NCBI GenBank assembly: GCA_016839815.1
Contig: JAEOTM010000204.1
Span: 32,001-96,000 of the forward strand
Source of the DNA: Candidatus Hodarchaeota archaeon
GTDB lineage: Archaea; Asgardarchaeota; Heimdallarchaeia; Hodarchaeales; Hodarchaeaceae
Direction of reading: 5' to 3'
DNA length: 64,000 nucleotides
Shown here: positions 46,855 through 62,450 of the stretch, piece by piece
Numbering within the stretch: position 1 is the first letter of the stretch
Layout of the letters: each line of letters opens with the position of its first letter
Notes under the pieces: generated by a model
Seen by the model: only the letters and a program-made list of their open reading frames with translations
The model's database searches: none
What the model was told of the DNA's origin: nothing
Translations under genes and position numbers: made by a program

Positions 46855-46883
46855 AGAAGTGACCACTAGACACAAGACCAGAA
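46855..46883 (+). repeat. Dispersed repeat copy R1 (block A only)
   Basis: agaagtgaccactagacacaagaccagaa is 27/29 identical to 47472-47500. Confidence 0.9.
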
Positions 46884-46930
46884 CTACTCATAAATATATT
46901 AGTATAGCATCAATCAAGAAGCGATGAATT

Positions 46931-47455
46931 TTGAATAGGAGTCAAAAGGATAAGTATATAATTAGAGTTTCTCTATTAAGCCATCCTGAGGATCTATTAC
47001 TCCCTTTAATCCGTGCATTGATTCAAAAATATAAAGGACAAACAACAAATCATACATTTGAAGACTTAACTCTCACTGCTTCAACAATAAAGATCCGGGT
47101 GGCTAATAGAATTGTAAAAGTGATTCTAGTACAGCCTATTGGTCGTGGATTCTTCAAAAAAATGTACGGTCATCACTTTCGATCTAGTGGAGCCATTATT
47201 GCATTTTCAAAAGATAAAAATGATTCATTTGAAGCATCAAGGGCCTTATACCAGCGTTTCAAGGATATCAATACTGCTGAGGTTCCAATTGCATTTGTGG
47301 GGATCCAAGAGTCACCTGATGACCTTGTTACTGATGAAGCCATTCAGCTGGAGGTAGGTACCTCTGAATTCTATTATTTTATTCAGCAGAATGATTTTGA
47401 AGTATTAGGGAAAATCCTCCTCTCCTTAGTAACAAAAATCTTCACACCTGCTTAG
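46931..47455 (+). CDS. Highly degenerate small-GTPase-fold protein
   Basis: Strand order YIIRVSLL / IKIRVANRIVKVILV / SSGAIIAFS...SFE / VPIAFVG matches the Ras fold. No G-box residues. Confidence 0.55.
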   Translation: MNRSQKDKYIIRVSLLSHPEDLLLPLIRALIQKYKGQTTNHTFEDLTLTASTIKIRVANRIVKVILVQPIGRGFFKKMYGHHFRSSGAIIAFSKDKNDSFEASRALYQRFKDINTAEVPIAFVGIQESPDDLVTDEAIQLEVGTSEFYYFIQQNDFEVLGKILLSLVTKIFTPA

Positions 47456-47471
47456 CAGCAGTTATTCACAG

Positions 47472-47616
47472 AGAAGTGACCACCAGACATAAGACCAGAA
47501 GACTTATCTACACACTCTAATTGACTCCTTAAGGTTATTTTTCTGAGTTTGAAAAAAACGAGAAGACTGACCCTTTCCACGTTAATCTTGTATTATTAGT
47601 CCTTGTGTGATAGGAA
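47472..47616 (+). repeat. Dispersed repeat copy R2 (full)
   Basis: Block A, then gactccttaagg, aaaaaacgagaagactgaccctttccac and ccttgtgtgatagga. Confidence 0.92.
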
Positions 47617-48020
47617 TGAGTTAGAAAATTAAATGGAAATCCCATAAGCATTCAAAATTCCTTTTTTAAGGCGATATAGTATATACTAATTAATCGATAT
47701 TTAGAGAGTACTAAGAACCACAAAAAGGACGTTATCCCCAATATTTTTACTTGTAAATGAGAGGACTGAAGAATTTCACATTCTAAAGTCCTTAAAATCA
47801 TGTCTAGCATTGTAATCGGTCTCTATTGTAGAAAAAATAAGTTTCTATCGAGAAATGAAATGAGAATTCCGATTTAACACGCCTGACGTCCACATTCCAC
47901 CTCTAGATGATTCCTTTTATTTTATCAAGTTCTTCAATAATAATTTAAAGCTCTGTTGTGAAAAGTAAGGAATAAGTAGGTCAACCTCGCTGAAGCTGGC
48001 AGGCAAAGAGAGGGAAATAT

Positions 48021-48653
48021 ATGAGAAGCCAAAAGTTAATTGGAACGAAAATTCGAATAAAAATCGTACTGATTGGAGATGGAGGGGTTGGAAAAACCAC
48101 TCTTCGACGCACATGGTTAGGAGAAGAGTTTAAAACCGAGTATCATATGACTATTGGCGCTGATTTTGCATCCAAAGAAGTAAGTTACTATCATTCCCCA
48201 ACAAAAACTACCTATAAAATCAAATTTCAAGTGTGGGATTTAGCTGGACAACCGATGTTTAAGGCAGTACAAGAGCTGTATTACCGGGGTGCAGTCGGAG
48301 CATTATGCTTTTTTGATATAACAAATCAGGAATCGTACATGCATTTGGTCGAGTGGATTCAAAGTTTCTGGAACTTAAATGGCAAGGGGAAAAGTCCCCT
48401 GCTTATTGTCGCTTCAAAATGTGATCTTCGCGACAATCCCGCATTTCCAAATCAGGTATCTGCCCACTATGGCAAAGAATATGCGGAAAAACTATCCAAA
48501 TCACTAAAAGATGAATTAGGGTTTTCTGTACATTATGTAGAAACCTCCGCAAAAGACGATATCAATGTGGATAACGTATTCAAGATGTTAGCAGGGGAAA
48601 TTATATCTAGCTACACCTTTCAGGAAAAAAAGGAAGAAACACCTACAAGGTAA
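48021..48653 (+). CDS. Rab-like small GTPase, paralog A
   Basis: GDGGVGKTT, TIGADF, WDLAGQ, YYRGA, SKCD, ETSAK. Confidence 0.95.
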   Translation: MRSQKLIGTKIRIKIVLIGDGGVGKTTLRRTWLGEEFKTEYHMTIGADFASKEVSYYHSPTKTTYKIKFQVWDLAGQPMFKAVQELYYRGAVGALCFFDITNQESYMHLVEWIQSFWNLNGKGKSPLLIVASKCDLRDNPAFPNQVSAHYGKEYAEKLSKSLKDELGFSVHYVETSAKDDINVDNVFKMLAGEIISSYTFQEKKEETPTR

Positions 48654-48824
48654 TTTATTTACCTTAACTAATTTTCCACATCAGTAATCCGTGGAAAAGG
48701 AGTGGGAGTTCCGTGAGAACAGAAACAGAAGTGCAACCTCCATCCAAAGACAATGATAATCCTATATATTACAAAACTCTCAGAGAAGAAAAGTCCATAG
48801 GACACTACTATTGAATAATTAGAA

Positions 48825-49439
48825 TTATCTACCTTTCTTCTTACGGTATAAAATTAAAACAAATAGATTGGGAAAGAAGGAAAGATACAGAAGACCAGGA
48901 GTGAAGACAGAACGAGAAGCAGGGAGAGTGGATAAAGGCCAGGTAGTGATTCTAGAAGGTGCTCCAACAAAGGTGGAAACACAAAAGGTGTCACTAGAAG
49001 TGGTAATAGCCAACCAGATAACTCCATAAACAAAACAACCCTCCACGAGAAAATCAAAAGAAGAACTAGTAGACAAAGAATAGGAAGGAGGAGAAATACT
49101 AACTGGATCAGAATAATTCCAAGTAACTCCTCCAAAGGTGACCTCATGCCAGAGACGAAGGGAAATGACCTCACAAGGAGAAGAACCATGATAGGTTAAA
49201 CGGATAACGAGTTGAGAATAACCCATACAATCCCAGGTAACCACCTCGGTATAATTAGGAGGATGAGGACCAGGGACAAATTGTGTCTCTCCATAATAAC
49301 CGAGAACAGACAAAGAAAATCCATCGGATGAGGTCGAAGGAATTGAAACGAAAAAAATGCTATTTGACAAAAATAGAAGACTAATCCCTATCAAAAACAG
49401 ACCAGAAAGGAACTTCATTGCAAGAGACCTTCTTATCAT
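48825..49439 (-). CDS. Secreted/anchored hypothetical surface protein
   Basis: Signal peptide and TPGL-TM-RKKKGR tail. The coding strand is strongly pyrimidine-rich. Confidence 0.65.
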   Translation of the reverse strand: MIRRSLAMKFLSGLFLIGISLLFLSNSIFFVSIPSTSSDGFSLSVLGYYGETQFVPGPHPPNYTEVVTWDCMGYSQLVIRLTYHGSSPCEVISLRLWHEVTFGGVTWNYSDPVSISPPSYSLSTSSSFDFLVEGCFVYGVIWLAITTSSDTFCVSTFVGAPSRITTWPLSTLPASRSVFTPGLLYLSFFPNLFVLILYRKKKGR

Positions 49440-49530
49440 CTTACGTGTCTAACTAGACTTAAGAAATCTTGGATGACAACACACCTATCACGCAAGAATT
49501 AGGGTGAGAATATTTTTTCAAAAAGGAGAT

Positions 49531-61520: not shown

Positions 61521-61578
61521 TACTCTTCAATGAAATTAGGAAGTTTTCAAAAGGTTTCTGAAAATTGGGATTGTAACT

Positions 61579-61644
61579 ATTTTTAGTAAAAAACGAGAGG
61601 ACTGACCCTTTCACACTTTTCGTCCGAAGCTCGTGTGTGAGGAA
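61579..61644 (+). repeat. Dispersed repeat copy R7 (core only)
   Basis: aaaaaacgagaggactgaccctttcacac...tcgtgtgtgagga. Confidence 0.9.
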
Positions 61645-61704
61645 TTCAATATCTGTAAGATATGAAAACCAGTTATCTCATGAAGCATTGATAAAAAAGA
61701 GAAA

Positions 61705-61737
61705 TGTATATATAGATTGTAAACAGAAGTGTATACA
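61705..61737 (+). promoter_or_regulatory. Putative RHH operator: TGTAWAYA x3
   Basis: tgtatata at 61705, tgtaaaca at 61718, tgtataca at 61730, upstream of the antitoxin. Confidence 0.55.
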
Positions 61738-61770
61738 AATCACTTGGTGACTTCACTTGGATATGAGAAA

Positions 61771-61986
61771 ATGAGTCAAGTACAACTAAGATTACCCCCC
61801 TCTCTGGTAAAAATGATTGATAACTTGGTAGCAGAAGGAAAATACAAAAATAGAAGTGATGCGATAAGAACTATGATCTCTAATCAGATAGAGTTTGAAA
61901 AAACACGTGATTTCTTATCTATGCTTCAAACTAGGAGTAAAGAAGCAGAAGACCATCCAGAAGATTTGATTCCTTTTGAAGATTGA
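61771..61986 (+). CDS. CopG/ParD-like RHH antitoxin
   Basis: VQLRLPPSLVKMIDNLVAEGKYKNRSDAIR. Confidence 0.92.
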   Translation: MSQVQLRLPPSLVKMIDNLVAEGKYKNRSDAIRTMISNQIEFEKTRDFLSMLQTRSKEAEDHPEDLIPFED

Positions 61987-62261
61987 TCGTAATGCCATAT
62001 CAGATTCTATTCCATTCAAAAGCGGATAAGACCTTAAAAAGTTTTGAACTACAACTACAAAAACGGATTAAGCAGAAAATACAAATATTAATAAACCAAC
62101 CAAGAAGTGGAAAGCTACTAAAAGGGTCAAAATTCTTTTCTCTAAGAGCTGGGGATTATCGAATAATTTACGAAATTAAGACAGACCCCTCACGCATTAT
62201 TATTCTTTTCATTGGTCATAGAAGCGTGGTTTACGATAACTTTCTGAAATGGCTTTCGTAA
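61983..62261 (+). CDS. relE: RelE/ParE-family toxin
   Basis: YQILFHSKADK, LRAGDYRIIYEI, IGHRSVVY. Confidence 0.92.
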   Translation: MIVMPYQILFHSKADKTLKSFELQLQKRIKQKIQILINQPRSGKLLKGSKFFSLRAGDYRIIYEIKTDPSRIIILFIGHRSVVYDNFLKWLS

Positions 62262-62294
62262 ACACAGAATTACACCTAGATGATGTAAATGAGA

Positions 62295-62450
62295 AGAAGT
62301 GACCACCAGACTTAAGATCAGATTTTCTCAAAGAAAACATGAACACATGCTATTAGACTCCTTACGGCTATTTCTTTTTCTTAAAAGAAAAAACGAGAGG
62401 ACTGACCATTTCCACACTTTTTTCTGGAAAGTAGACCTTGTACGAGGAGC
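62295..62450 (+). repeat. Dispersed repeat copy R8 (full)
   Basis: agaagtgaccaccagacttaagatcaga...gactccttacgg...aaaaaacgagaggactgaccatttccac...ccttgtacgaggagc. Confidence 0.92.

Follow-up and report, generated by a model that had tools for sequence, protein, structure and literature searches.

Co-oriented copies of the 23S rRNA gene tail divide a gene array of a Hodarchaeales archaeon into cassette-like blocks

The window analysed here is a 64,000-nucleotide stretch of a Candidatus Hodarchaeota archaeon (contig JAEOTM010000204.1; G000:C196:32001-96000 in our numbering of genomes and contigs), taken from a 4.24-Mb metagenome-assembled genome (MAG) that is 89.5% complete and comprises 206 contigs. 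Its right-hand part carries small GTPase genes, a beta-helix protein gene and toxin-antitoxin pairs, divided by copies of a non-coding repeat (Table 1). An earlier note on this DNA had described eight copies (R1 to R8) of this repeat, composed of blocks A to D, on a single strand and between genes. Blocks A and C match at these sites only, with 0 matches expected by chance, and a repeat search followed by MAFFT alignment recovered all eight copies as one family of ~140-150 nt, on the plus strand and between open reading frames (ORFs) throughout. The first 46 kb had been called free of copies, and nhmmer --max accordingly found 0 in window positions 1-46800; a further partial copy, holding blocks C-D only, had been missed. 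The copies were originally written as plus strand; the sense of the rRNA discussed below is the minus strand.

The repeat had been taken for an unrecognised element. It is instead, as judged by sequence comparison, the 3′ end of the 23S rRNA gene plus its trailer in reverse complement, and every repeat represents an orphan gene tail (hereafter, a tail). Read on the minus strand, a tail comprises the last ~20-330 nt of the 23S gene, a small hairpin, and a ~115-nt 3′ trailer ending in a T-run. Fragments of the large-subunit (LSU) rRNA 3′ end (Rfam model positions 2721-2973) were found on the tail-bearing contigs of relatives, on the strand opposite to that on which the repeat had been written, and the cmscan LSU alignment of a relative's fragment ends in ...CUCCCACUCCUCGCAC, the reverse complement of block D. 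Contig G004:C44 carries a genuine 23S gene with its trailer behind it, and the last ~15-30 nt of 23S together with ~160 nt of trailer recur 3.7 kb downstream with 86% identity; the tail layout is homologous across G004, G007, G002 and G000. The 23S leader of G007 pairs with trailer blocks C, B and A, and the repeat unit is therefore the 3′ strand of the pre-23S processing stem; in G007 the unit stops where the processing stem and the T-run end. Rfam at gathering score gave 0 matches in the window, the repeats having no match at E<=1, and among tails only the longer ones of relatives reach LSU_rRNA_archaea. A scan for tRNA and tmRNA genes found none. The core of block C, ACGAGAGGAC, was considered as a sarcin-ricin loop and rejected as a mimic, being antisense to the rRNA, with the true loop lying further inside long tails.

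The distal end of the tails is constant and the 23S-side end variable, with 23S-side ends clustering at positions ~150-170, 222, 250 and 310 of the long hidden Markov model (HMM). Long tails have a sharp outer limit at ~465-473 of the long HMM (~2721 in the 23S model), a point lying immediately 5′ of the sarcin-ricin loop, and there is also a short class that starts ~20-40 nt before the end of 23S. Between blocks C and D, pairing of the hairpin is maintained by many different stem sequences (35/91 versus ~13 expected), which suggests that the tails became diverse while still in use by a functional rRNA gene. In some orphan copies of 23S domain VI (last rows of Table 1) AT-rich TTTCTT..AAGAAA hairpins stand in place of the helix tips, the helix bases being retained; this could reflect variation in the ES39 region or palindrome insertion. 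Separately, a lone block A of the G000 type lies at ~1501-1525 of locus L019 (G010:C12:198961-198985; 96% over 25 nt), ~290 kb away from the array of G010 itself, which has tails of a different kind. Read in this sense, block A resembles the leader strand of the G007 processing stem.

An HMM built from the window copies gave 44 nhmmer matches in G000, so that the genome holds at least 44 tails, on 13/206 contigs and co-oriented within every contig. Across genomes co-orientation was found in 99/99 matches (22 contigs, 6 genomes), and the clustered, co-oriented array dividing unrelated cargo into blocks that the earlier note had described is thus borne out. On C196 the array spans position 78855 to the contig end at 113.6 kb; the array is thus at least 35 kb long, and its distal 17 kb lie in the window. 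The island amounts to >100 kb, or ~2.5%, of the G000 MAG, with a median tail spacing of 1.85 kb. A dispersed repeat of the miniature inverted-repeat transposable element (MITE), repetitive extragenic palindrome (REP) or insertion sequence (IS)-end type would likewise be short, non-coding and present in many copies. The repeat is, however, confined to arrays, never occurs in mixed orientation, has no terminal inverted repeats and is homologous to the 23S tail, and we rejected such an element as having a negligible probability.

In two relatives, G004 and G007, the array lies immediately next to the real 23S gene. One end of the 54.7-kb contig G007:C8 falls within this gene, with ~26 co-oriented tails along its remainder, and we infer that the G000 array likewise runs towards its 23S gene, which is unassembled in this MAG. 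On G010:C12 the array reaches at least 40 kb. Tails of the G000 type were detected by blastn in 5/21 congeners, and the arrays of G004, G007 and G010 are built from tail variants of their own. A DNA search found at least two copies of 23S domain VI per genome in 11/22 genomes of the genus, with a maximum of 8 in one genome, and in 1/61 genomes from other families of the class. The 45-kb contig G000:C134 (L013) consists of ordinary genes and carries a single tail at 45026-45119, ~100 nt from its end, which suggests a second distal array boundary; G000 would thus have two arrays and perhaps two rRNA operons. A full-length 23S gene was found in just one genome of the genus, on G001:C57 (L038). 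It has no tail repeats downstream and is only ~75% identical to the 23S tails of congeners over domain VI; this contig may be mis-binned. No full 23S match was obtained in the single-contig genomes G009 and G015.

Table 1. Features of the array in the window (window positions; tails on the rRNA-sense strand) and altered-helix copies elsewhere
Feature	Position	Strand	Description
R1	46855..46901	-	Most distal tail, truncated to block A (trailer end)
Degenerate small GTPase	46931..47455	+	Weak Ras match; between R1 and R2
R2	47472..47622	-	Short orphan tail: last ~25-35 nt of 23S + trailer
Rab/Ras GTPase + promoter region	47930..48673	+	Duplicated at 57642-58385 (87%)
R3	49526..49680	-	Short orphan tail
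NosD/beta-helix protein, 996 aa	49723..52713	-	In G018 (88%) and G013 (83-85%) at other array positions
R4	52672..52815	-	Short orphan tail, linked to beta-helix cargo
Cargo block R4-R5	53031..57284		wHTH/4Fe-4S protein, two ORFs without Pfam match, CitMHS transporter
Partial tail	54138..54196	-	Blocks C-D only
R5	57312..57485	-	Tail extending ~50 nt into 23S
PIN toxin + antitoxin	58400..59080	-	In arrays of G018, G013, G002
R6	59120..59245	-	Tail without block A; hybrid of two G018 tails that flank an extra 200-aa cassette
Cargo block R6-R7	59377..61520		MazE-PIN pair, 127-aa ORF, nitronate monooxygenase-family (NMO) gene
23S-like fragment	60401..60468	-	No trailer; 72% identical to 23S part of R8
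R7	61540..61649	-	Degenerate tail, without block A; blocks C-D clear
RHH antitoxin + ParE/RelE-type toxin	61729..62261	+	Between R7 and R8
R8	62294..62685	-	Tail with ~195 nt of 23S domain VI; long-HMM positions 10-354
Altered-helix copy L008	G000:C192, 5930-6375		
Altered-helix copy L002	G000:C62, 2562-2986		
Altered-helix copy L044	G002:C65, 3355-3841		

The cargo calls made in the earlier note hold under Pfam: two Ras/Rab genes, a degenerate GTPase, a NosD/beta-helix protein and three toxin-antitoxin pairs (PIN + antitoxin, MazE-PIN and RHH-ParE). The ~250 ORFs on the array contigs of 7 genomes fall mostly into singleton families. The largest cargo family is that of the small GTPases (26 members), followed by toxin-antitoxin pairs and beta-helix proteins, and Pfam further identified an SLFN_AlbA_2 (Schlafen AlbA_2-domain) protein, methyltransferases, Kelch, ABC, nitroreductase and CBM96. 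Small GTPases are over-represented, 11/61 (~18%) of the Ras-family matches of G000 lying on array contigs that make up ~2.5% of the genome. On both sides of a tail, genes reach right up to it with their 3′ ends, whereas their starts are set back by a spacer of 80-400 nt. Capture of foreign DNA is unsupported, as the GC content of the array (0.37) equals that of the genome (0.36).

Several features of single blocks may be added. The promoter region of the PIN/antitoxin pair (59080-59130) contains, in repeated form, a motif of the CATATCTCATATCACATG type, which is nearly unchanged in G018 and better conserved than the adjoining tail; from its sequence the motif is likely an operator. The 23S-like fragment in block R6-R7 sits between the 127-aa ORF and the NMO gene and is probably a decayed tail, in which case the block was formerly two cassettes. 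When metagenomes were scanned with the NMO cargo protein, the relatives obtained were no more than 63-75% identical and had no tails close by. A 74-aa ORF (62457-62681) falls wholly within the 23S fragment of R8 and is therefore very unlikely to be a gene; in G002, G007 and G013, long tails are likewise overlapped by comparable ORFs of ~90 aa (family F9). To the left of R1, five genes (window 35151-45495) have 51-78%-identical homologues in tail-bounded cassettes of G013, G002, G018 and G020, and no tail remnant was found in this interval in G000. The interval may be an old end of the array that is losing its tails.

Comparison between species revealed that cassette order varies, as expected of a shuffled array, with shared cassettes 80-93% identical in nucleotide sequence. 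The order in G000 is beta-helix, PIN/antitoxin, MazE-PIN and a 641-aa gene, and that in G018 is 641-aa gene, PIN/antitoxin, MazE-PIN and beta-helix; in G020 the 641-aa cassette adjoins the GTPase cassette that G000 has between R1 and R2. The latter cassette also lies between tails in G002 and G020 (92-93% nucleotide identity), and a full tail is present there at the position of the truncated R1. Orientation relative to the tails was kept in every inter-species cargo match. A one-cassette empty junction, of the kind the earlier note had suggested looking for, was found between the toxin-antitoxin cassettes, where G018 has tail, 200-aa ORF and tail and G000 has the single hybrid tail R6. Part of the array is inherited vertically, with orthologous tails 80-88% identical; R4 and its G018 counterpart, for instance, are ~80-85% identical against a family level of ~70%. 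The high-identity break points of orthologous cassettes fall inside tails at differing positions (~10, 41, 58, 67, 114-123, 140 and 160 of the long HMM), and thus lend no support to fixed break points in the repeat; these events are, however, old and overlaid by deletions, and long tails do share a sharp outer limit. Mean tail identity is 0.71 within genomes and 0.65 between them.

Some of these data would also follow from a purely local process, in which the 23S end and its downstream genes were repeatedly duplicated in tandem, or by unequal crossing-over, and then diverged with no mobility. GTPase paralogues are abundant, the GC content of the array equals that of the genome, many tails are old (~70% identity) and part of the array is vertically inherited. 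Neighbouring tails are nevertheless no more alike than distant ones (0.715 versus 0.723), the cargo between them is unrelated, cassettes change place between species and the one-cassette insertion or deletion is precise, and we regard local duplication as highly improbable.

The array could also be compared to a classical integron, or to a cluster of attC sites lacking an integrase (CALIN), as reported for Asgard archaea. It is an array of small blocks, its cargo includes toxin-antitoxin pairs and its repeats are more alike within than between genomes, the last two being hallmarks given in PMC9668308. The repeats, however, are pieces of an rRNA gene tail, each unit being one strand of the leader-trailer helix, and lack the R″/R′ boxes of attC; no conserved GTT/AAC boxes appear in an alignment of 22 copies. 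That the repeat acts as a folding hairpin site was not upheld either, single-strand folds (four copies, both strands) being no better than shuffles in 6/8 cases (z +0.5 to +1.4) and not attC-like, in agreement with the earlier statement that these are not attC sites. Cargo is not co-oriented, 73 ORFs running in the rRNA direction and 52 against it, and no IntI was found, an absence that the completeness of G000 leaves unproven. Taken together, an integron or CALIN has next to no probability.

The window had been described as free of recombinase genes, and Pfam analysis of the window and array proteins found none. A linked tyrosine, serine, IS110 or HUH recombinase, for which the earlier note had recommended a search, is absent from the array contigs in five genomes (G000, G002, G013, G018 and G020). 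The only tyrosine recombinase (PF00589) of G000 is XerA-like, is encoded on C183 and is conserved in all five genomes tested, and serine, IS110 and HUH recombinases and reverse transcriptase were not found in G000. No recurrent recombinase-like family emerged among the ~250 array ORFs. A 342-aa ORF left of R1 was considered as a hidden recombinase and dismissed: Pfam gave no match for it, its product resembles a multi-pass membrane protein, and its paralogues, present in all congeners, are only ~30% identical. TnpB genes occur genome-wide and are array-adjacent only in G010 and G018:C121. A retrotransposition-like origin, which the constant 3′ end and variable 5′ end of the tails might recall, was discarded, there being no reverse transcriptase in G000, G007, G010 and G018.

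Taking these results together, we consider it probable that the repeats are 23S tails and that behind the 23S gene lies an island of units, each made of tail and cargo, which recombined between co-oriented tails. The units, of one tail plus cargo each, would be gained, lost and re-ordered through such recombination: a circle bearing one tail and its cargo would enter by a Campbell-type crossover, either at the resident 23S tail or at one of the orphan tails, and units would be lost by looping-out between direct tails. A route of this kind would keep orientation automatically, would need no dedicated recombinase and would always leave the rRNA operon with a complete tail. Homologous integration would account for the polarity, the variable break points, the missing enzyme and the species-specific long tails with one outer limit. 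The tails would probably also serve as two-way transcription stops between blocks. Of the gene-capture or shuffling platform put forward in the earlier note, the clustered array, the re-ordered cassettes and the GTPase cargo thus stand. The repeat is not a novel element, and a linked enzyme, fixed break points and foreign capture found no support.

As to how the units recombine, homologous recombination between tails, to which we assign roughly an even chance, is favoured over a site-specific enzyme acting in trans, which we consider unlikely but a serious contender. Such an enzyme might be chromosomal, viral or plasmid-borne, and possibly of a family not yet described; it would use the 23S tail as its attachment site, in the manner of the tRNA- or tmRNA-targeting integrases or the integron integrase, and the blocks would be cassettes lacking an integrase. 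Tandem accretion at the 3′ end of a stable-RNA gene would give exactly this layout, the gene being restored each time by the replacement tail that a unit brings; orientation is never lost, long tails end sharply at ~2721, the short class starts close to the 23S end, and the MAGs are incomplete. Against this stand the lack of tyrosine, serine, IS110 and HUH genes on any array contig of the five genomes, the single XerA-like enzyme as the sole representative of these classes in G000, the array ORFs without a recurrent recombinase-like family and break points that vary between species.

Several observations weigh against the reading that we prefer, recombination between tails of an island behind the 23S gene. 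Identity between tails is only ~70%, and their longest perfect matches have a median length of 17 nt, which would make the tails poor substrates for homologous recombination within one array. The outer limit at ~2721 is common to the long tails of several species although their sequences are species-specific, and could mark a real cut or crossover site; this sharp limit and the low tail identity therefore leave room for an unseen site-specific enzyme. Some of the variable break points may be later deletions and not crossovers. With the 23S gene unassembled in G000, adjacency of array and gene is inferred there from relatives. Finally, the duplication of the Rab gene excludes the tails. This gene had been listed among the contents of the array; it was copied without its repeats, and other processes, such as ordinary duplication, therefore also act in the island.

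In a more far-reaching version, speculative and in our view quite unlikely, a dedicated gene-capture system would use the rRNA operon tail as its attachment site; it would have no integrase of any known family and would employ either a new recombinase or a directed use of the RadA machinery. The island would then be a nursery, in the archaeal lineage closest to eukaryotes, for new genes and notably small-GTPase paralogues; these would come in beside the 23S gene, move distally, shed their tails and end up as ordinary chromosomal genes. If the preferred reading of homologous exchange between tails is true, the rRNA gene end in Hodarchaeales would offer genes a landing pad that can be used repeatedly, a role played elsewhere by tRNA gene ends, but here with cassette-sized units and no integrase. 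It would bear on the expansion and exchange of accessory genes and on the expansion of eukaryote-signature genes in the closest archaeal relatives of eukaryotes, because the island is large, varies between species and contains ~18% of the Ras-family matches of G000. On the practical side, tails break assemblies (most G000 array contigs are 3-17 kb), create spurious ORFs and can be mistaken for extra or split 23S genes.

A literature search found no description of rRNA-anchored arrays, and the system is best placed beside three known ones. In tRNA and tmRNA islands each insertion duplicates the 3′ end of the gene, which gives rise to co-oriented direct repeats. The present array agrees with this, as its repeat is a copy of a gene 3′ end, it starts at the intact gene (G004:C44, G007:C8) and all copies are co-oriented. 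An integrase or integration module, which elements at stable-RNA ends carry in some of their units, was found in 0 of >100 units (6 genomes). Of the tandem ssrA (tmRNA) islands of Dehalococcoides, 16/31 carry a syntenic integration-gene module (PMC3146451). Here as there, non-core genes pile up behind a single-copy stable-RNA gene and form a major source of strain or species diversity (PMC3146451). Unlike those islands, the array has an rRNA gene as its target, a repeat of 150-450 nt that includes the whole trailer, and units of cassette size with a median spacing of 1.85 kb.

Sedentary chromosomal integrons and CALINs, those of archaea among them (PMC9668308), share with the array its length, its small unrelated blocks, its co-oriented repeats and its toxin-antitoxin cargo, and many of their arrays also have no integrase nearby. 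In contrast to them, the array has neither attC structure and core boxes nor IntI, its cargo runs in both directions with upstream regions of its own, and its repeat is a piece of the host rRNA operon, at which it is anchored. The array is integron-like in layout only.

In staphylococci, SCCmec and composite staphylococcal cassette chromosome (SCC) elements stack in tandem at the 3′ end of rlmH (orfX), some of them without a recombinase of their own, and are bounded by direct repeats. SCC elements are tens of kb in size, their repeats measure ~15-20 bp, their crossover sites are fixed and their Ccr serine recombinases are known, all of which sets them apart from the array described here. What the two have in common is tandem stacking at the 3′ end of a conserved gene, with direct repeats of that end.

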